Shown here in pieces: positions 8,638 through 22,277 of a stretch of DNA of 32,000 nucleotides (positions are counted from its first letter, which is position 1; every line of letters starts with the position of its first letter). The position numbers and the translations under genes were made by a program. The notes under the pieces are model-generated. The model was not told the DNA's origin and did no database searches. It was given only the letters and a program-made list of their open reading frames with translations. The DNA is from Akkermansia muciniphila ATCC BAA-835 (GTDB lineage Bacteria > Verrucomicrobiota > Verrucomicrobiia > Verrucomicrobiales > Akkermansiaceae): assembly GCF_000020225.1 (NCBI RefSeq), contig NC_010655.1:900001-932000 (forward strand), read 5' to 3'.

Positions 8638-8841
8638 GTTGAACAGTTAATTCATTTGAAGACGGTTGCCAATAACAATTTTTTTCTCTCTTCTCCGAAT
8701 CTTCGGAATACCCTTCCCCTCCGCCAGAAATCTGACGGGGCCGGACGGAACGGAGGCCTTCCGTTCCGTGGAATGTGATCATGTCATATATCTTCATCCC
8801 TTTGTATGAAAACCGGAGGACGCCTGTCTAAATTGATCAAT

Positions 8842-10647
8842 ATGAAAACAATTGTTCTTCTTCGCCATGGAGAAAGCACGTGGAACCGTGAAAACAGATT
8901 CACCGGATGGACGGACGTGGATCTGACGGAATTGGGAATACAGGAAGCCAACCACGCGGGCGACCTTCTGAAAGACAGGGGAATGGCCTTTGACCATGCC
9001 TACACCTCTTATCTCAAGAGGGCCGTGAAAACGCTCAACTGCGTGCTGGACCATTTGGACCAGGACTGGCTGCCCGTCTCCAAAAGCTGGAGGTTGAATG
9101 AAAAGCACTACGGCATGCTCCAGGGCCTGAATAAAAGTGAAACGGCTCAAAAATACGGAGACGAACAGGTACTGATCTGGAGGCGCAGTTATGACGTGGC
9201 GCCTCCTCCCCTGGCGGAGGACGATCCCGCCAACCCCAAATGGGATCCCCGCTACAAGGGAGTGCCGGACAGCGAACTTCCGCGAACGGAATCACTGAAA
9301 GAAACTATTGCCCGCATGATGCCCTACTGGGAAGGAACAGTTCTCCCTTCTCTACGGACGCTGGACAATATCCTAATCGTAGCCCACGGCAACACATTGC
9401 GGGGCATGATCAAGTATTTGAAAAACATTCCTGACGAACAGCTGCTTTCCCTTAATCTTCCTACCGCCACCCCCTATGTATTTGAATTTGACGACTCCCT
9501 AAACCTGGAAAAAGACTACTTTCTTGGGGATCCGGAAGAAATCCGCAAACGCATGGCGGCCGTCGCCGGCCAGGGAAGCGCAAAGAAAAAAAACGCCTGC
9601 GGAATAACCTCATTATCCTTTCCTATGACCGCCCATTCCTGCCGCATTGCGTTCTTTGACGCCAAGCCCTACGACCGGGATTCCTTCAATTCTGTCAATG
9701 AACGCGAATTCCATTACGACATCCGTTACTTCAAAGGGCACCTCACTCCGGACAGCGTGCCCCTGACCCGCGGTACGGACGTAGCGTGCATTTTCGTCAA
9801 TGACACGGCAAACCGGGAAGTAATACGGAACCTGAAGGAAAATGGCGTCAAATTGCTGGCTCTGCGTTGCGCCGGATTCAATAATGTGGATCTGAAAGCT
9901 GCGGAAGAAGCGGAACTGCCCGTCGTGCGGGTGCCCCAATATTCTCCCTATGCGGTGGCGGAACATGCCGTAGCCCTGATGCTTTCCCTGAACCGCAAAA
10001 TACACCGCGCCTACTGGCGCACCAGGGACGGCAATTTTTCCCTTCACGGCCTGATGGGCTTTGACATGAATGGAAAAACGGCCGGCATCATCGGAACGGG
10101 AAAAATCGCCAGAATCCTCATCCGCATTCTCAAAGGCTTCGGGATGAACATCCTGGCCTATGACCTGCACCCTGACCAGCGCTTTGCGGAAGAAGCCGGC
10201 ATTACGTACACCACCCTGGACGATCTGTACGCCCGGTCCGATATCATCTCCCTGCACTGTCCCCTTACTCCGGAAACGGAACACCTGATTAATACGGATT
10301 CCATTGGAAAAATGAAGGATGGAGTGATGATCATCAACACGGGACGCGGCAAGCTGATTAACACGGAAATGCTGATTGACGGCCTGAAATCAAAAAAAGT
10401 GGGAGCTGCCGGACTGGACGTGTACGAAGAAGAGGGAGAATATTTCTACGAAGACAAATCCGACAGGATTATTGATGATGATACTCTGGCTCGTCTCCTT
10501 TCCTTCAACAACGTCATCCTGACTTCCCACCAGGGCTTTTTCACGAAAGAAGCCCTGCACAATATTGCGGAAGTCACCCTGCACAACATCCGGGACTTTC
10601 TGGAAAGCAAACCTCTGATCAACCGAGTCTCGCTTCAGTCACGCTGA
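8842..10647 (+). CDS. gpmA-ldhA: Single in-frame ORF joining 2,3-bisphosphoglycerate-dependent phosphoglycerate mutase (aa about 1-250) to D-lactate dehydrogenase / D-2-hydroxyacid dehydrogenase (internal ATG at 9625)
   Basis: The N-terminal part, [28 protein letters not shown]...[15 protein letters not shown], is collinear with GpmA to its normal C-terminus (..AAVANQGKAK in E. coli). An 11-aa linker [11 protein letters not shown] follows. Then [17 protein letters not shown]...[12 protein letters not shown]...[14 protein letters not shown]...[33 protein letters not shown].. is collinear with LdhA. There is no stop between the two parts. The track start at 8806 is upstream; the ATG at 8842 gives the canonical GpmA N-terminus. 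Confidence 0.85.
9586..9593 (+). repeat. A8 homopolymer at the gpmA/ldhA junction; its length sets whether the two genes are fused
   Basis: The sequence reads GCA AAG AAA AAA AAC GCC TGC GGA ATA ACC... With seven A residues the frame becomes ...AAA AAA ACG CCT GCG GAA TAA (stop at 9605-9607). That would leave 17 nt before the ldhA ATG at 9625. Confidence 0.9.
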
Positions 10648-14378: not shown

Positions 14379-14926
14379 TTCCGTTTTCTTTCATTTCTTT
14401 TTTTCCGCCTGTAAACAGGAAGGAAAGAAATATCTTTTCCCTTCGTTCCCCGGTCTTAGCCGTTTGGGGACGGGCTGACACCATCCAGATACCGGCTTTC
14501 TGCGGCGCCTTCGGTTGGCACCCCCGTAGAAATGAAAGACATTCCCACCCTTCCGACGCTCCTGGCGGATACAGCCGGATATTTCACTTACGGACGGCAT
14601 CAAAAACGGTGGTAAAACAGAAGAAGAAATTAAATTATTCTAAAATCATCAATCATCCCAAGGATGTTTTTCCCCTAAAGTGGATTGGGGAAATTCAGGA
14701 AATCTGAAAATCAAATAACTTTCTCCGGCCAATAAAAACAACATTTAGAAAATTCCTATATAAATAAATATCAATGGCATATTGAAATAAAAACATGTCT
14801 TTCCCTGAACAGGCCGTCCGAAGCCTGGTCATCACGATAGGAATGAAGAATGCCGGAAAAGGGAATGCTGCCGGCTATTTCCCGCATGGCAGCGCTTTTC
14901 CCCTTCCGTCAACTCCGCATCAAAAT

Positions 14927-15841
14927 ATGACTGACGAAAAAATGAGCACAGAAGGTACTAACGAAATACAGGACCCGCGCGGTGAATTCCAACAGGAAAG
15001 ATATGAAAAGCAGCAGCAGAAAGCCCCCGGACTGCAATCCGGAATGAAGCCCGTGCCGGATTCCGGGGAACAAAGCTACCATGGCTGCAACAGGCTCCGT
15101 GGACGAAAAGCCCTGGTCACAGGGGGAGACTCGGGAATAGGCCGGGCGGCGGCTATTGCCTACGCACGCGAAGGAGCCGACGTAGCCTTGAACTACCTTC
15201 CTGAAGAACAAAGCGATGCCGAAGAAGTGGCGGAACTCATCAGAAAAGAGGGCCGGAAGGCCGTCCTGCTGCCGGGGGACCTCAGCGATGAAGTCTTTTG
15301 TAAAAAACTCGTCAGGGATGCCTTGGAAAAACTTGGCGGACTGGACATCATGGCCCTGGTAGCCGGTAAACAAGTGGCGGTGGAAGATATCCGGGACATT
15401 ACCACGGAACAATTAACCAAGACATTTGAAGTAAACGTGTTCTCCCTGTTCTGGATTGCCAAGGAAGCCCTTCCGCATCTCAAGCCGGGGACGAGCATCA
15501 TTACCTGCTCCTCCATTCAGGCCTACCAGCCCGGCAAGAACCTGGTGGACTATGCTTCCACAAAAGCGGCCATCATTGCGTTCAGCCGCTCCCTGGCCAA
15601 GCAGGTTGCCCCCAAAGGCATCCGGGTCAACGTGGTGGCTCCCGGCCCCATCTGGACAGCCCTGCAAGTAACCGGAGGCCAGCTGCAGAAGGATCTGCCG
15701 GAATTCGGACGGAAAACGCCTCTCAAAAGGGCAGGGCAACCTGTGGAACTCTCCGGACTATACGTCTTTCTCGCCTCCCAGGAATCCAGCTTCATTACTG
15801 CGGAGGTCTTTGGCGTTACCGGCGGCATGCATCTGGCCTGA
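14927..15841 (+). CDS. SDR-family NAD(P)-dependent oxidoreductase (YghA/YhdF / general-stress-protein-39-like)
   Basis: The ATG at 14927 gives [10 protein letters not shown]... followed by [30 protein letters not shown] (TGxxxGIG Rossmann motif). The catalytic region is [16 protein letters not shown] (YxxxK). The hydrophilic N-terminal extension is typical of this subgroup. Confidence 0.88.
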
Positions 15842-16013: not shown

Positions 16014-17036
16014 ATGGCATTTTGGAGGTTTTGGTTCATCTTTTTCCCTTTCACGGCGCTTCTCTTTTCCATGGTGCATGGCAGTCCTCTGAACGCACCC
16101 GTCATCACCCTTGGAGAGAAAAAAAGCCTGTTCGGAGAAAAAGCGCAGGCCAATGAATATGTCAGCTATGCCCTTTATTACTGGCCGGACCCCGCCAATC
16201 CGGACGGTCCTTACAAACCCATTGACGGCAAAAAGAACAAACGGCTCCGCAGCATGGACGACAGCGGCAGGATGGCCGCTTTCATCAGCACGGTCTGCAG
16301 CCTGGGACGGCAGTATGAACTCGACAGGGATCCGCAGGCCGCCTCCAGGGCCGGGCAATGGCTGAAAGCCTGGTTCATTGCTCCGGCAACCCGCATGCAG
16401 CCCCATCTGAAATATGCCCAAATTCGCCCCGGACACCGGACGGAAGGAGACGGAGGAGGCATCATCGACCTTTACCGCATGCCCGAATTCCTGGAAGCTT
16501 TGACGGCGTTGAAATGCTCCAATGCCCTAACGGCAGAGGAATGGAAGCAGGTGGACGCATGGCTGAACCAGTATTACACATGGCTGACTACCAGCAGGCA
16601 GGGCAGGCATGCACACACGCGCAGCAACAACCATTATCTGTTTTATGTGGCGCAATGCGCCCATTTGGCATCCTTCCTGGGCCGCAGCCATGAAGCGGCC
16701 CAATGGCTGGCAGAAGCCTTCGCCAACCTGGACCGCCACATCGCTCCCGACGGATCCCAGCCCGAAGAACTCAAACGGGCGGAACCCTGGCAATACAGCG
16801 TTTACACTCTTCAGGCATGGGGATACCTGGTGCATCTTGCAGAACGCATGGGCGACAAGAACTACCGTTACCGGAAAACACCCGCCGGGGCCTCCATTCA
16901 AAAAGCTGTGGACTATCTCCTGCCTTACCGCGCCAACCCTGAAACATGGCCCTGGCAAGGCTCCAGGGCAAACACTCCGCTGCCCGCCATCTTTGAACCG
17001 GAGCAGGCGGGCAGGCCACAACGGAAATGCTACTGA
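16014..17036 (+). CDS. Alginate-lyase-family (PL5-like) polysaccharide lyase-like protein, secreted
   Basis: The ATG at 16014 gives the signal-like MAFWRFWFIFFPFTALLFSMVHG. YYWPDPANPDGPYKPIDGKKN and NNHYLFY resemble the YWWPDP...PY..DG and NNH motifs of the Alginate_lyase (PF05426) fold. Confidence 0.7.
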   Translation: MAFWRFWFIFFPFTALLFSMVHGSPLNAPVITLGEKKSLFGEKAQANEYVSYALYYWPDPANPDGPYKPIDGKKNKRLRSMDDSGRMAAFISTVCSLGRQYELDRDPQAASRAGQWLKAWFIAPATRMQPHLKYAQIRPGHRTEGDGGGIIDLYRMPEFLEALTALKCSNALTAEEWKQVDAWLNQYYTWLTTSRQGRHAHTRSNNHYLFYVAQCAHLASFLGRSHEAAQWLAEAFANLDRHIAPDGSQPEELKRAEPWQYSVYTLQAWGYLVHLAERMGDKNYRYRKTPAGASIQKAVDYLLPYRANPETWPWQGSRANTPLPAIFEPEQAGRPQRKCY

Positions 17037-17127
17037 ACCGCGCCCGCCGTTAAAAGTATCCGTTTTTCCTGCTTATTGAAAATCCCCTCTCCAGCAGCAC
17101 GAACGGGGTATTTTCCCGGAAAACGAT

Positions 17128-17637
17128 TTAATAAGAAATCTCCCCAGTATTTTTCCCCTTAGATTTTTCCTTTCTTTTTGCTGCTCTCCATTCCCACGGA
17201 GATATGGGATTCAGCTCAGACCAGATGCCTTTTTGGGCCTTTCTGGCATCCCTTTCAAGAGAAACGAGTTTCCGGCTGGCGGAAAAATTTTTATAAATCC
17301 ACGCCCATCCTTCCTTCACCATCTCTTCGTTGACGAGCATTTTTCCATGCCATATTTCCCCTAAAATACGGCCGTACCTGTCACTCTCGGTATACCGGAC
17401 TGTAACCGCCTCTCCCCAAATCAGCTTTTCCAGGTATTCCTTGGCGCCTTCATACCCGTCCTGCTCCCTTTCCGGCGCATCAATTCCCTCAAGCTGTATC
17501 CGATGCGTACGCATTTGTTCAGGCGTCCTTTCCAGAAGGATGACCGTGTCGCCGTCAATCACGTTAATCACGACTCCCCTGATACTTTCAGCAAAAGCCA
17601 TGCAGGGACTTATCAGGAAAATCAAAAGCCATTTCAT
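17128..17637 (-). CDS. Secreted thermonuclease (staphylococcal nuclease/SNase-like) family protein
   Basis: The ATG at 17637 gives signal peptide MKWLLIFLISPCMAFA. VIDGDTVILL...RIQLEGIDAPE...YGRILGEIW..LVNEEMVKEGWAWIY is the SNase fold pattern. Confidence 0.85.
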   Translation of the reverse strand: MKWLLIFLISPCMAFAESIRGVVINVIDGDTVILLERTPEQMRTHRIQLEGIDAPEREQDGYEGAKEYLEKLIWGEAVTVRYTESDRYGRILGEIWHGKMLVNEEMVKEGWAWIYKNFSASRKLVSLERDARKAQKGIWSELNPISPWEWRAAKRKEKSKGKNTGEISY

Positions 17638-18012
17638 GAAAAATGATATAATCCAAAAAATATCAGGATGCAACTACTCTTTAGAGAAACCGTTCCCGCA
17701 CTGTTCACACGGCCGGAAACAGATGAATACGGTCATCTGTGGACAGCCTGTTCTGGAACAGGCCATCATGTTTTCCGGCATGAAGGAACACAATTCCCGA
17801 ACCTATTCCAACCTGTCCGGAACAACGGTAAACAGGCTGTATCATTGCCCCGCTCCGGAACATCTTTGTTCGCTGCCGTGCCGGGAGCGGAAGAACATCC
17901 CGCCGGCGTACCCCGGCAATCTAACCCATGCCGCCATTTAAAAAGACTGCACATTAAACAAGAAAAACCGGGCGCCCTGCAACATTCAATGGCATGGCGT
18001 GAGACATTTCAC

Positions 18013-18207
18013 TCATTTTTTCAATTCTTCGGCTATTCTGCCGAGGTTCTTTTCCGTTGCCTTTCTCAGTTTCTCCTGCTGTTTCCAGTACCATGCCGTT
18101 CTTTCCGACACCCCGGCCTGATTCGCCAGCCAGCGCACGGCGCCGCTCGTGTCACAGCCTGTTTTCTTCTGAATGACTTCCAGCAGTTGAGCGACATATT
18201 TATTCAT
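18013..18207 (-). CDS. Small (64 aa) HTH-like protein; last gene of the IbrAB-like cassette
   Basis: The ATG at 18207 lies 16 nt after the stop of the ParB-like gene. The protein is MNKYVAQLLEVIQKKTGCDTSGAVRWLANQAGVSERTAWYWKQQEKLRKATEKNLGRIAEELKK. The segment SGAVRWLANQAGVSERTAWYW looks like a helix-turn-helix. The track ORF (to 18345) overlaps the upstream gene and is not favoured. Confidence 0.6.
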   Translation of the reverse strand: MNKYVAQLLEVIQKKTGCDTSGAVRWLANQAGVSERTAWYWKQQEKLRKATEKNLGRIAEELKK

Positions 18208-18223
18208 GGATTCCGGGTTGATA

Positions 18224-18739
18224 TTATTTCGATTCCCATGCCCGGCTGAATTCCTCGTCCCGGAACAGGGAGGCAATCCCGCTGAGCTGCTTGAGGCGCA
18301 ACAATTCTTCCGCATCCATCCCCAGATTTTTGAGTATCCACGCATCCGACATGCCTGCCTCCGTCAACTCCTGGATAATATTGGTCATGAGGGCGATATT
18401 ATGAGATCCCCGGGCACGGTTGTGCCTGATGGTGGAAGCCATGCGGTTTCCAAGAGGCTTGTCGATTACGGCCACCGGCATCATGCCACCCTCCCGTTCG
18501 TAAATATCGCGGTAAGTCTTCATGATCTGGCAGCGGTGGAACCCGTCCACGATTTCATAGGTCCCGTCCTCCAGCTTATAACAAACGATAGGCATCGTAT
18601 AACCGTCCTCCTTGATGCTCTGGTAGAGCAGCTTCATTTCGGGGGGAGCTACGCTGTTCGGGTTATAGGCATTGGAACGTATCTGGTCCAGGGGAACGCG
18701 CCGGATTTTGTAAACGGGGGATTGATAGGAGGTTTTCAT
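18224..18739 (-). CDS. ParB/sulfiredoxin N-terminal-domain protein, IbrB-like
   Basis: 171 aa. The ParB/Srx catalytic-loop motif is EIVDGFHRCQ (DGxHR). The downstream STIRHNRARGSH block is characteristic of IbrB-type ParB-like proteins. The start ATG overlaps the upstream stop as ATGA (18739-18736). Confidence 0.85.
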   Translation of the reverse strand: MKTSYQSPVYKIRRVPLDQIRSNAYNPNSVAPPEMKLLYQSIKEDGYTMPIVCYKLEDGTYEIVDGFHRCQIMKTYRDIYEREGGMMPVAVIDKPLGNRMASTIRHNRARGSHNIALMTNIIQELTEAGMSDAWILKNLGMDAEELLRLKQLSGIASLFRDEEFSRAWESK

Positions 18740-20031
18740 AAAATATTGCGGTATTTATTGACGGCGGCCCGGCGCCGGGCAATCGCTCCCTTGGTTGGAC
18801 CGAACCCGGCGTACTTGCAAAAGTAATCATTCTTCATGATGCAGATGCACATGCGCTTGTAGGAAGGCACCTGCCGGAAATTGCTGACCGGCATGTCGTC
18901 GGGATAGCCCATAAACTGAATGACGTCGCGGTCGACGTAACGGCCCGACTTTCCCGTCACGGTCGCCAGAGGATAGGCGGCCAGCACTTCATCGGCAGTT
19001 CCGGGATCGACGGTACCCCCTTTCATCCAGTACTTTTTAGACCTCTCCAAAATGTTGTTGTAGTGTTCCGCCGTTTTCTCGTTCATTGTGGAAAGCAGGA
19101 ATTCATAATAGGACTTCCAGGTATGGCCGGGCGGCAGTTTGATGGTTTTCCAGCCCATGGCCGTCGTACCTCCGTACAAACCTGTGAAGTTGACGCCGTT
19201 GACGCGCCCGACCATGCGCGCCCAGTTGGCAGGATCAATAACTTTGTAAAGCTTCAGGCTTTCCTGGGCGCAGTCATTAAACGGGCTTGCCACCCGCATT
19301 TGCCCGATCGTAAGGCCTGCCTGGTACAGGAGATCGTAAAGGCGGTTATAGTCAAAACCAAAACGGGCGTTGGCCGTCCAGACGTCACTGACGCGCCAGT
19401 CATAAAGAGGGTAGGCGCTGACGGTCACGGCATCAGCCCGTGTAATCCACTTCCTTCCCTCATAAGACGTCCTTTTATTGCCGCGGGCAACGGCGGCGTA
19501 TCTGTTGAGGCTTTCATCCGCCCGCAGCCCTACCATGACGGCAGTACTTCCGTGTTTTTTGGCAAAATGGCGTGAAAGCTTATCCTGGAATTCATAGTCC
19601 ACCATACCGTGCCGGAACGGGACGTCCAGATTCTTTTCGTTGATTACATAGGGATTTTCCGGCATGGGTCGCACCCACAGTTTTTTCTGGGCGGCGCTCC
19701 ACGGCGTCCAGTAAGGTTCCCCCAGGGAGCATGCGGACTGGGCCCTGATCGGTACACAGTACCACATCTTACGAATGCCGGGGAATTGCTCCAGAAATGT
19801 TCTGGTGACATACTCGGTCGTCATCTGATATTGGGCCTCATAATCAAGGTGATACATGGACAGCTTATCCAGAAGGCCCTGTTCGGCGGCGTAACGATAG
19901 CAGAGATTAAGCATGACGCCGCTGTCCTTGCCGCCCGAAAAAGACACCAGGACATTGTCAAACTCTTGGAAACAATAGGCTATGCGTTCTAAAGCCGCCT
20001 CATAAACATTTTTATCCAGATATGTTTTCAC
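18736..20031 (-). CDS. PP-loop ATP pyrophosphatase of the PAPS-reductase family with a long C-terminal extension (IbrA/DUF3440-like)
   Basis: The PP-loop VLVSFSGGKDSGVMLNL lies about 30 aa from the proposed GTG start at 20031 (VKTYLDKNVYEAALERIAYCFQEF..). About 250 aa lie C-terminal to the PAPS-reductase core. The track ORF extends to the GTG at 20139, but that extension is R/G-rich (MVSGKMHGFRRSYPGRRVPVRQGAGGGWRK). The other frame there encodes a more protein-like 69-aa ORF, and its TGA overlaps this GTG as GTGA. Confidence 0.8.
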   Translation of the reverse strand: MKTYLDKNVYEAALERIAYCFQEFDNVLVSFSGGKDSGVMLNLCYRYAAEQGLLDKLSMYHLDYEAQYQMTTEYVTRTFLEQFPGIRKMWYCVPIRAQSACSLGEPYWTPWSAAQKKLWVRPMPENPYVINEKNLDVPFRHGMVDYEFQDKLSRHFAKKHGSTAVMVGLRADESLNRYAAVARGNKRTSYEGRKWITRADAVTVSAYPLYDWRVSDVWTANARFGFDYNRLYDLLYQAGLTIGQMRVASPFNDCAQESLKLYKVIDPANWARMVGRVNGVNFTGLYGGTTAMGWKTIKLPPGHTWKSYYEFLLSTMNEKTAEHYNNILERSKKYWMKGGTVDPGTADEVLAAYPLATVTGKSGRYVDRDVIQFMGYPDDMPVSNFRQVPSYKRMCICIMKNDYFCKYAGFGPTKGAIARRRAAVNKYRNIL

Positions 20032-20237
20032 AACTTTTCCAAAGCCTGTCTTTCGCCATCCGCCGCCAGCCCCCTGCCGGACGGGAACACGTCGGCCCGG
20101 ATATGATCGCCGGAAGCCATGCATTTTCCCTGAAACCACTCTTGCAGCTTGCAGCTCATAGGGATATCCCCTGTTCTTTCAAACAGGGTTGCAACGCCTT
20201 CATTTCTGCATAAATAAGCAACATCATGTTTTTTCAT
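20028..20237 (-). CDS. Small (69 aa) hypothetical protein; first gene of the IbrAB-like cassette
   Basis: The ATG is at 20237. The protein is MKKHDVAYLCRNEGVATLFERTGDIPMSCKLQEWFQGKCMASGDHIRADVFPSGRGLAADGERQALEKL. Its stop TGA overlaps the GTG at 20031 (GTGA). I recognise no domain. Confidence 0.45.
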   Translation of the reverse strand: MKKHDVAYLCRNEGVATLFERTGDIPMSCKLQEWFQGKCMASGDHIRADVFPSGRGLAADGERQALEKL

Positions 20238-20877
20238 GTTTTCAAATGCGCAGCAGCTTATCGTCCGTTATTTTCCGTCAACAATACCAACCTACTGAAT
20301 TATTGCGGCGGGTCAATGTTTTTACTGCAATTATTTCAGTAATTTTATTGTCATCACCCTCCTTCTCAAAATACCTGCGCTTTTTAGCGAGCAACACCAT
20401 TCCAGAAATGCCTTATGCATTGCGCCATGACCTCCTTTCCTTCTCCGCAACATCTGCGCTATGTGCAGCATTCAAGACGCTGCGTTGGAATGCACGGTTT
20501 CAAAATCGGAGACACAAAAATCATAACTTGCTTAAAATTAGGTGAACGAAAAAATGTACGACTCAGAGCCATTTTCCGGTTCCAACATCTTTCCCCCAAT
20601 ACTCTTTCCGGAACCGCATCTTCCAGGCAGACGATACATCCATCATTTCCCTCCTGAAGGAAAAATAACCGTGTTTCCCTTTTTGCAATCCGGGATGCTG
20701 TCCAAACATGAATATGCCGGTACACGCCTTAATCATGCCGTCAGATTAGACTTTAGGCGTTTTATGATTTTCCCCGAAACGCCAATTTCATGCCAGAACG
20801 GAATCAAAAAATGACATTTAGTCAGCACTTATGGTTGTTTTTCCGCGGTTTTTCACCTTTCCAGCCTCAAAACAGAC

Positions 20878-20916
20878 AAAAAAGAAGCCCTGTAATCCAT
20901 TAAAATTACAGGGCTT
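20878..20916 (-). terminator. Intrinsic terminator immediately downstream of tRNA-Asn
   Basis: The minus strand reads AAGCCCTGTAAT-TTTAATGG-ATTACAGGGCTT (perfect 12-bp stem, 20916-20905 with 20896-20885), followed by CTTTTTTG. Confidence 0.8.
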
Positions 20917-20926
20917 AGAAAATTAG

Positions 20927-21001
20927 TGGCTCCCCCGGTTGGGCTCGAACCAACGACCTAGTGATTAACAGTCACCCGCTCTACCGCTGAGCTACAGGGG
21001 A
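20927..21001 (-). tRNA. tRNA-Asn (anticodon GTT), CCA encoded
   Basis: The reverse complement is TCCCCTGTAGCTCAGCGGTAGAGCGGGTGACTGTTAATCACTAGGTCGTTGGTTCGAGCCCAACCGGGGGAGCCA. It has acceptor TCCCCTG/CGGGGGA, anticodon loop CT-GTT-AA and T-arm GTTGG-TTCGAGC-CCAAC. Confidence 0.93.
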
Positions 21002-21140
21002 GTTTGCATTCCATGGAACGCGGAGGGGTTTTTACTGGAGGTACGGGCGTTTGGCAAGTACTTTTTTACTCTTGCAGGCTTTTTGACGCAAAAAGGCTTC
21101 CGCGGCGCGGTCATGGCAACGGTGTTTTCTTGACCTTTGA

Positions 21141-22277
<1,137 letters not shown>

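Follow-up and report, generated by a model that had tools for sequence, protein, structure and literature searches.

An IbrA/IbrB gene pair in a domesticated prophage remnant beside tRNA-Asn of Akkermansia muciniphila

Organisation of the locus

The locus described here lies in a 32,000-nt stretch of NC_010655.1 from Akkermansia muciniphila ATCC BAA-835 (the window, whose coordinates are used throughout), where four open reading frames (ORFs) are packed on the minus strand. In order of transcription these are p69, a relic ORF of 69 aa (20237-20028); an IbrA-type enzyme of 431 aa with a GTG start (20031-18736); an IbrB-type ParB/Srx protein of 171 aa (18739-18224); and p64, a small, lineage-restricted protein of 64 aa that forms the last gene of the operon (18207-18013). 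They are preceded on the same strand by a promoter and leader region (20240-20447) and, further upstream, by the gene for tRNA-Asn(GTT) (20927-21001, minus strand; ARAGORN, Rfam), which is the integration site discussed below. Surveyed loci and contigs are referred to by L-numbers (e.g. L095) and protein entries by P-numbers (e.g. P0277).

An earlier note on this DNA, made from the letters of the sequence, had outlined these four ORFs, and the same ORFs are present in independent gene calls on public assemblies. The 4-nt overlaps that it described, GTGA at 20031-20028 between p69 and IbrA and ATGA at 18739-18736 between the IbrA stop and the IbrB start, are real, as is the 16-nt gap before p64, and the motifs SFSGGKDSG, DGFHR and RHNRARG were all found. 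As set out below, we favour, with moderate confidence overall, a reading of the locus as a domesticated prophage remnant in which the IbrA-IbrB pair is the working unit.

The IbrA and IbrB proteins

The assignment of the two central genes to IbrA and IbrB, proposed in the earlier note, is borne out by profile hidden Markov models (HMMs) of Pfam and PHROGs and by fold searches. IbrA consists of a PP-loop ATP pyrophosphatase domain (residues 27-237), matched by PAPS_reduct (PF01507; 7e-13, 49.4 bits against a cut-off of 22.5), followed by DUF3440 (PF11922; residues 239-416; 9e-79, 263.9 bits against a cut-off of 25), and the protein matches phrog_2302 at 1e-102. The C-terminal extension, previously put at roughly 250 aa, is DUF3440 and measures ~190 aa instead. 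The PP-loop SGGKDS occupies residues 32-37, within SFSGGKDSG at 30-38, and its residues S32, G33, G34, K35, D36 and S37 are invariant in an alignment of 45 homologues; some 80 further positions, including Cys92 and Cys395, are invariant across phyla. The GTG start is supported because homologues beginning MK(T/K)Y align there. In an AlphaFold2 (AF2) model with a predicted local distance difference test (pLDDT) score of 83.7, the N-terminal domain comprises ~240 residues, for which Foldseek returned CysH, CysD, APS reductase and the PAPS domain of FAD synthase (E ~2e-7), with TilS, TtuA and NcsA as more distant matches. No solved structure of the IbrA family was found in sequence searches of the PDB.

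The partner protein, IbrB, matches Pfam ParB_N (4e-7; 30.5 bits against a gathering cut-off of 26.3) and phrog_2159 (1e-75). Its model predicts an N-terminal NTP-binding fold, with DGFHR where ParB has GERR, and then a helical domain resembling a helix-turn-helix (HTH). Foldseek matched this model to the CTP-binding proteins ParB, KorB and Noc over both domains, and in a motif alignment DGFHR stands in register with the GERR box of Noc and ParB. The N-terminal domain also superposes on SbnI, SerK and sulfiredoxin at 2.2-3.1 Å over ~85 residues, with 24% identity.

Both proteins are well conserved over large distances. IbrB is 72-77% identical to homologues from Firmicutes and their phages, and those at 73-75% identity bear the NCBI name 'IbrB-like domain-containing protein'; IbrA shows ~57% identity across phyla and 47% to a phage gene annotated as IbrA. 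The PAPS_reduct plus DUF3440 architecture, an intact SGGxDS PP-loop and a co-directional, adjacent ParB_N partner, which together define the IbrA/IbrB family, were all found in the window, and the pair is a further member of this known, uncharacterised family, not a new kind of system. In the E. coli pairs, IbrA/IbrB of the ECOR-9 island and their K-12 paralogues YbdN/YbdM, IbrA is likewise PAPS_reduct plus DUF3440, and the ParB_N partner likewise lies immediately downstream in one operon, where the likeness to ECOR-9 IbrA/IbrB is judged through the annotated phage genes (47% for IbrA, ~73-75% for IbrB-like) and Pfam architecture. Unlike the E. coli pairs, the pair in Akkermansia belongs to a prophage remnant that includes an additional p64 and a relic leader ORF, and it has no adjoining LysR-type regulator (YbdO/CitR). 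IbrA and IbrB are said, in work credited to Sandt et al. in 2002, to co-activate prophage eib genes.

The genes of the locus differ sharply in the selection acting on them. Between the window and a 90%-identical relative, the ratio of nonsynonymous to synonymous substitution rates (dN/dS) is 0.06 for IbrA, 0.04 for IbrB and 0.07 for p64, against 0.88 for p69. Among 16 A. muciniphila haplotypes, nonsynonymous and synonymous polymorphisms number 6 and 37 in IbrA, 1 and 19 in IbrB, and 1 and 9 in p64, as compared with 8 and 4 in p69; tested against the other three genes pooled (8/65), the p69 counts give a Fisher p of 9e-5.

Origin of the locus in a temperate phage

The ancestry of the locus is seen in contig L095, which represents the end of an intact Akkermansia prophage and encodes an IbrA 84% identical to that of the window. 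In this prophage the order of genes is integrase, X350, SNF2 helicase, IbrA, IbrB and p65, followed by a diverging S24-repressor region. Window 20052-18017 aligns with L095 3652-5689 at 79% identity, and window 20340-20180, which corresponds to the promoter and the first codons of X350, aligns with L095 1350-1515 at 71% identity. Because the L095 prophage bears the intact operon, these comparisons show that the window locus is what remains, in domesticated form, of the early operon next to the integrase in a temperate phage of Akkermansia once inserted at tRNA-Asn, and we hold this account of its anatomy and origin with high confidence. It bears out the accessory origin beside a tRNA gene that had been suggested at first reading. 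The low-GC islet described on that occasion is found in part, in that the intergenic DNA has a GC content of 0.41-0.45, while the genes themselves lie at 0.51-0.55, against 0.55-0.63 in the flanks.

An internal deletion of ~2.2 kb took out X350 and the SNF2 gene, leaving an in-frame stub of 69 codons that ends on the IbrA start codon. The integrase and the remaining phage genes are also gone from the window; a tblastn search with the L095 integrase found no integrase remnants between the tRNA gene and the cassette, and a search for a direct, att-like repeat of the 3' end of tRNA-Asn that would mark the far edge of the island found none.

The stub is p69. Its codons 1 to ~39 derive from the 5' end of X350, a 350-aa prophage gene (tblastn E 0.003, in a small search), and its final 8 codons are what is left of the 3' end of the gene for the SNF2 helicase; in p69 of the window this C-terminus reads ERQALEKL, and L011 and L096, which are close relatives, have GRKALEEL. 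The GTGA overlap of the p69 stop with the IbrA GTG is, in turn, the inherited junction of SNF2 and IbrA. p69 has not kept the Cys/His ligands of the N-terminal part of X350, and searches of Pfam, NCBIfam, PADLOC and PHROGs gave no family for it. A relative at 74% identity (L002) has a comparable stub that joins ~20 residues of the X350 N-terminus to a 55-aa piece from the C-terminus of SNF2 (67% identity, E 6e-24), with a deletion junction that differs from that of the window. By these alignments and its dN/dS, p69 is a neutrally evolving deletion scar of two removed prophage genes, and at most a leader or coupling ORF, in place of the specificity or regulatory subunit that it had been suggested to be. 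It serves as a caution that small ORFs in tight overlap with their neighbours can be scars of deletion and not subunits.

Upstream of p69, a TTGACC box resembling a -35 element (20316-20311) lies between two degenerate prophage-operator palindromes (20342-20322 and 20309-20292), and a promoter scan gave a promoter-like site at 20369-20342. In the promoter of L095, a perfect palindromic operator of 21 nt stands on either side of TTGACC, whereas the window copies fall below detection; such degeneration is expected because the cognate repressor has been lost. Leader sequence is conserved in L011 up to 20447, and by its identity to L095 the region 20240-20447 is inherited from the promoter and leader of the prophage early operon. 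An Rfam scan of 17000-21200 returned only the tRNA, and hence no riboswitch or known small RNA in the 690-nt leader.

Status of the locus in the species

The 3' end of the tRNA-Asn gene faces the cassette, and a terminator scan placed a strong terminator hairpin between them at 20916-20885. Depending on the strain, the elements found at this tRNA gene include a full prophage, a kinase/VWA island, elements bearing HicA/MqsA and an integrase-primase island (L100, L102, L112, L115, L119). Since further integrase-bearing elements have inserted at this tRNA gene or next to it in other strains, tRNA-Asn is an active hotspot of integration.

In the collection, 41,288 blocks are indexed with the exact IbrB sequence, as compared with 40,933 for the adjacent LeuB. 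The cassette was present in 18 of 20 sampled places, ten of which were sampled by IbrB and so carry it by construction; among the ten sampled by LeuB it occupies the site in eight. Both places without it thus belong to the LeuB sample, and they have other mobile DNA at the tRNA side, with junctions at 20779 (an integrase-bearing prophage) and 20922, in fetched stretches that cover the tRNA side and end before the far side. Three of the places sampled by IbrB have extra mobile elements that separate the cassette from the tRNA gene and whose junctions (20971-20974) fall within the latter. The IbrAB remnant is the oldest layer at the hotspot and appears to be fixed now in A. muciniphila, so that the accessory status once assumed for it does not describe the species today. 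A scan of a genome collection for IbrA returned two Akkermansia loci only; its peptide patterns were too strict for it to serve as a map of presence and absence. In an Akkermansia metagenome-assembled genome from rabbit, the cassette and the side bearing the staphylococcal-nuclease (SNase) gene are syntenic with the window, and the other flank is different.

Distribution and gene partners of the pair

The neighbourhood of the pair was surveyed in 93 IbrA loci, made up of 80 IMG/VR (viral) loci together with metagenomic and phage records. In 89 of the 93, IbrB is encoded on the strand of IbrA and no more than 1 kb away, abutting or overlapping it in 59, and three of the four loci without a linked IbrB are truncated contigs. 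No homologue of p64 or p69 was detectable in the ~85 non-Akkermansia loci. The survey thus links only IbrA and IbrB, obligately and usually with translational coupling, and not the co-conserved unit of four genes that had been envisaged.

Among the 80 viral loci, several other genes recur. A SNF2-family helicase is encoded in 37, directly upstream of and abutting IbrA in 26, and an uncharacterised protein of ~140 aa in 32. In 16 there is a cupin resembling ectoine synthase (EctC), which is encoded by a gene of its own between the pair or joined to IbrB as an N-terminal fusion (Pfam Ectoine_synth, E 1e-36 to 1e-45; L057-L075, e.g. L057:5308-5775, L058:5311-6249 and L066:3049-4068). No literature was found on a cupin with IbrA/IbrB; its presence hints at cyclodehydration-type chemistry in the pathway. 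Occasional members of the module are a methyltransferase, a GNAT protein, a second IbrA paralogue and a small HTH protein. One such paralogue, of 381 aa and without alignment residues ~340-375, is encoded in a gut prophage two genes past the first IbrA-IbrB pair (L004:8171-9316, and also L005).

In temperate phages the pair adjoins the integrase and repressor genes, but it also occurs in virulent phages of S. thermophilus, and control of lysogeny therefore cannot be its core role. Beyond this survey, the pair was found in thousands of metagenomic protein clusters, 226 phage records and 727 plasmid records, Klebsiella virulence plasmids included. Plasmid records with an IbrA homologue number 323 for Klebsiella and 190 for E. 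coli; in the K. pneumoniae IncFIB plasmid NZ_CP083752.1 (L109:5977-7838), a bare IbrA/IbrB-like pair stands between fecIRA and iroBCDN. Chromosomal pairs have been described as well, both in E. coli K-12 (ybdNM) and, as part of the core genome, in Listeria. The family is thus common yet unexplained.

Relation to known systems

The combination of a PAPS-reductase-family PP-loop enzyme with a ParB-fold protein of the DGxHR type, acting on or near DNA, is shared with DndC and DndB of phosphorothioation. The Dnd system was rejected, as IbrA scores 20 bits with the DndC HMM TIGR03183 against a cut-off of 290.4, and the PADLOC DndC match (25.7 bits) covers only residues ~156-263. DndC moreover lacks the DUF3440 that IbrA has, and the window locus has no DndA, DndD, DndE, DndFGH or other restriction partner. 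BREX type 4 was likewise rejected, given a PADLOC BrxP match of 20 bits over residues 12-46 only and the absence of PglZ, BrxC and BrxL from the neighbourhood.

A further likeness is to DpdA/DpdB of 7-deazaguanine modification, where a ParB-like NTPase accompanies a base-modifying enzyme and SNF2-type helicases occur in the wider cluster. Dpd was rejected in turn: no TGT/DpdA gene was found in the window or the Akkermansia loci, the locus has no preQ0 pathway, and IbrA is not QueC. In the Fusobacterium phage phiFN37 (L014), IbrA/IbrB is followed 3 kb downstream by a second ParB-like gene (8745-9266) and then by a queuine tRNA-ribosyltransferase gene, and this second pair resembles DpdB/DpdA. 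Since phiFN37 carries both, the IbrAB and DpdB/DpdA-like systems are distinct. Across the four cassette proteins, PADLOC 2.0 gave only weak, partial matches to DndC, BrxP, MTase_II and RT_UG29, and recognised no defence system, so that membership in a known one is not supported.

The best structural matches to IbrB are the CTP clamps ParB, KorB and Noc, with which it shares the NTP-binding and helical domains and an alignment of boxes I and II. It differs from them in having DGFHR for GERR and YNPNS for NPxQPR, in its length of only 171 aa without a C-terminal dimerisation domain, and in lacking any ParA or parS context. A partition ParB was rejected (TIGR00180, 23.4 against a cut-off of 58.45), and the GERRxR arginine patch was not found. 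Sulfiredoxin, SerK and SbnI are ATP-dependent phosphotransferases, and they share with IbrB the N-terminal fold and an HR-type motif; IbrB differs from them in its extra helical domain and its constant pairing with IbrA, and has a Phe (in DGFHR) in place of the catalytic Cys of sulfiredoxin.

Possible function of the pair

PP-loop enzymes activate carbonyl or carboxyl oxygens for substitution. By analogy, the working unit would be the IbrA-IbrB pair, probably as a complex, in which IbrB would bind DNA in a nucleotide-dependent way and IbrA would adenylate a substrate with release of pyrophosphate, so that a nucleophile could replace the activated oxygen. The likeliest target would be DNA, at a base or in the backbone, and the covalent mark would alter gene expression or the outcome of phage-host conflict. 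In this scheme p64 may serve as a lineage-specific DNA-binding accessory or regulator, and p69, if active at all, would only bring ribosomes to the IbrA GTG. This chemistry is put forward tentatively. The SNF2, EctC-like cupin and methyltransferase neighbours in phages favour ATP-dependent action on DNA without proving it, and a role in nucleic-acid modification is a reasonable inference for the pair. In its most specific form, the proposal is that IbrA-IbrB is an undescribed two-component nucleic-acid modifier, whose NTP-gated ParB/Srx subunit places a PP-loop adenylating enzyme on DNA, to which phages add a SNF2 motor and variable tailoring enzymes such as EctC-like cupins in order to mark DNA, and of which A. 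muciniphila has fixed the minimal core plus p64 as a chromosomal epigenetic or anti-phage function; we consider this version speculative and rather unlikely.

Several points weigh against reading the remnant in this way. Foldseek found no analogue of DUF3440 in the PDB, which leaves no structural guide to its function, and we found no published biochemistry or mechanism for IbrA/IbrB, DUF3440 or YbdN/YbdM. A substrate-defining partner, such as a sulfur donor or transglycosylase, is absent from the window, and the Akkermansia cassette is without the SNF2 helicase that is the best pointer to DNA. The p69 reading frame is open in 23 of the 23 sequences examined, and p69 may for this reason have a weak role after all. 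Finally, the sole known genetic phenotype of the family, eib co-activation, is explained equally well by a purely regulatory role.

Such a regulatory module, in which IbrB is an NTP-gated DNA clamp or co-activator and IbrA a cofactor or a sensor or consumer of nucleotides, involves no covalent modification, and in A. muciniphila the remnant would regulate genes of the host or of resident prophages. The folds closest to IbrB, those of CTP-binding ParB, KorB and Noc with the helical DNA-binding region included, are those that such a module calls for, and the pair stands at the lysogeny-switch end of the genome in temperate phages, although its presence in virulent phages speaks against a regulator of this kind. 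E. coli YbdM has been listed as a predicted transcription factor (PMC9068703). Against this, the catalytic residues of the IbrA PP-loop and ~80 other positions are invariant across phyla, which is hard to reconcile with a non-enzymatic cofactor, and the enzymes that recur beside the pair (SNF2, EctC-like cupin, methyltransferase, GNAT) point to chemistry. The DGFHR of IbrB is of the type found in Srx, SerK and DndB, not GERR, and a protein of 171 aa is probably too short for the C-terminal dimerisation domain of the ParB type. We regard a purely regulatory module as possible, if doubtful.

The earlier note had taken all four genes as a single accessory cassette for modification, defence or conflict, with the small proteins as specificity or regulatory subunits. 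The ORFs are indeed tightly packed and co-directional, all four are kept in Akkermansia relatives (85-99% nucleotide identity), and p64 is under selection and follows IbrB both in the prophage and in a distant relative. However, p69 is a fusion relic by its dN/dS and its lost X350 ligands, the small ORFs are without homologues in IbrA loci beyond Akkermansia, the cassette is fixed and not accessory in A. muciniphila, and no effector or other defence gene lies nearby to accompany the negative PADLOC result, all of which makes a four-gene cassette improbable.

A toxin-antitoxin or abortive-infection pair, with a ParB-like antitoxin and a DUF3440 toxin kept by addiction and not by benefit to the host, has a precedent in the TASmania database, where Listeria lmo1309/lmo1310 (ParB/DUF3440) are listed as such a pair through guilt by association (PMC7020466), and two-gene pairs do persist on plasmids and in chromosomes. 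That listing is based on gene adjacency alone, the identity of IbrB and IbrA across phyla is unlike that of fast-evolving toxin-antitoxin pairs, the genes also occur in virulent phages beside helicases, and PADLOC returned no match of this kind; we consider an addiction pair very improbable.

The least credible account, hardly tenable in our view, is that IbrA is a genuine PAPS reductase (CysH) acting as an auxiliary gene of sulfur assimilation, which is the usual annotation in phages, agrees with the Pfam family name and with CysH and APS reductase as the closest solved folds, and follows a literature that treats phage PAPS reductases, generally including the IbrA-type gene, as sulfur-metabolism auxiliary genes, but which is contradicted by scores of 13-22 bits with the cysH/PAPS-reductase HMMs against cut-offs of 154-254 (TIGR00434, 21.9 against 165.1; NF002537, 17.8 against 154; TIGR02057, 13.5 against 254.2), by the ATP-type SGGKDS loop and the extra 190-aa domain, by the obligate pairing with a ParB/Srx protein, and by surrounding genes of replication and lysogeny, not sulfur. 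The CysD HMM also scored far below its cut-off on the window proteins. On the strength of HMM scores, domain architecture and gene context, the sulfur-metabolism label on phage IbrA genes is very likely wrong.

To return to the domesticated remnant, a prominent human gut symbiont has kept a minimal IbrA-IbrB pair under strong purifying selection after shedding the remaining prophage, and it follows that the pair benefits the cell by itself. Its domestication in a major gut symbiont and the partner genes seen in phages raise the interest of this member of the family, and the intact ancestral operon, together with the helicase and cupin partners, provides concrete constructs for assays of modification and regulation.

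p64 and neighbouring features

In addition to the pair, p64 is a real gene under purifying selection. Its homologue in the L095 prophage, p65, is 81% identical and also placed after IbrB, and in the distant relative L108 a further homologue (P0277) follows IbrB with a 4-nt overlap. The family is tiny, with 36 clusters in 5.8 billion proteins and 24 hits in 1.84 billion representatives, and profile searches of those representatives returned only this narrow family and low-complexity noise; p64 is limited to Akkermansia and its phages. As a subunit that would co-occur with the pair, p64 accordingly stands up in being selected and following IbrB, but only within the Akkermansia lineage. Its description as HTH-like rests on weak, sub-threshold matches, and an HTH is probable at residues ~27-50.

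Some variants of p64 are seen. In L096 (6872-7156), whose IbrA is 89% identical, it is frameshifted after about residue 43 to give a product of 94 aa, so that either p64 may not need its C-terminal part or the gene may be in decay in that lineage. In the window, the p64 frame is open for 46 codons further upstream, into the 3' end of ibrB (18013-18345, minus strand). Public assemblies contain IbrB-p64 fusions of 238-241 aa that arise by four distinct frameshift variants (P0157, P0158, P0160, P0162); as each is rare, with one or two members, they may be sequencing errors.

The genes neighbouring the cassette in the window encode LeuB, DAO, a rhomboid protein, a ComM-like protein, SNase, an alginate lyase and an SDR protein. 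The SNase gene (17128-17673, minus strand) encodes a staphylococcal-nuclease homologue that is probably secreted, because it has an N-terminal hydrophobic leader, and its synteny with the cassette and with the alginate lyase gene persists even in loci that have a different opposite flank. A role for SNase as a restriction-type effector was rejected, as it is a conserved neighbour outside the prophage-derived segment whose leader suggests secretion. The spacer between SNase and p64 (17674-18012) lacks conservation from one species to another, and in L010 an indel of ~90 bp (17760-17854) is seen there.

In some A. muciniphila genomes, IS1595-family transposases are inserted near the locus (L098:13135-14052 and L110:13895-14653). 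Elsewhere in the window, where GC averages 0.55-0.60, it falls to 0.40 at 14400-15000.

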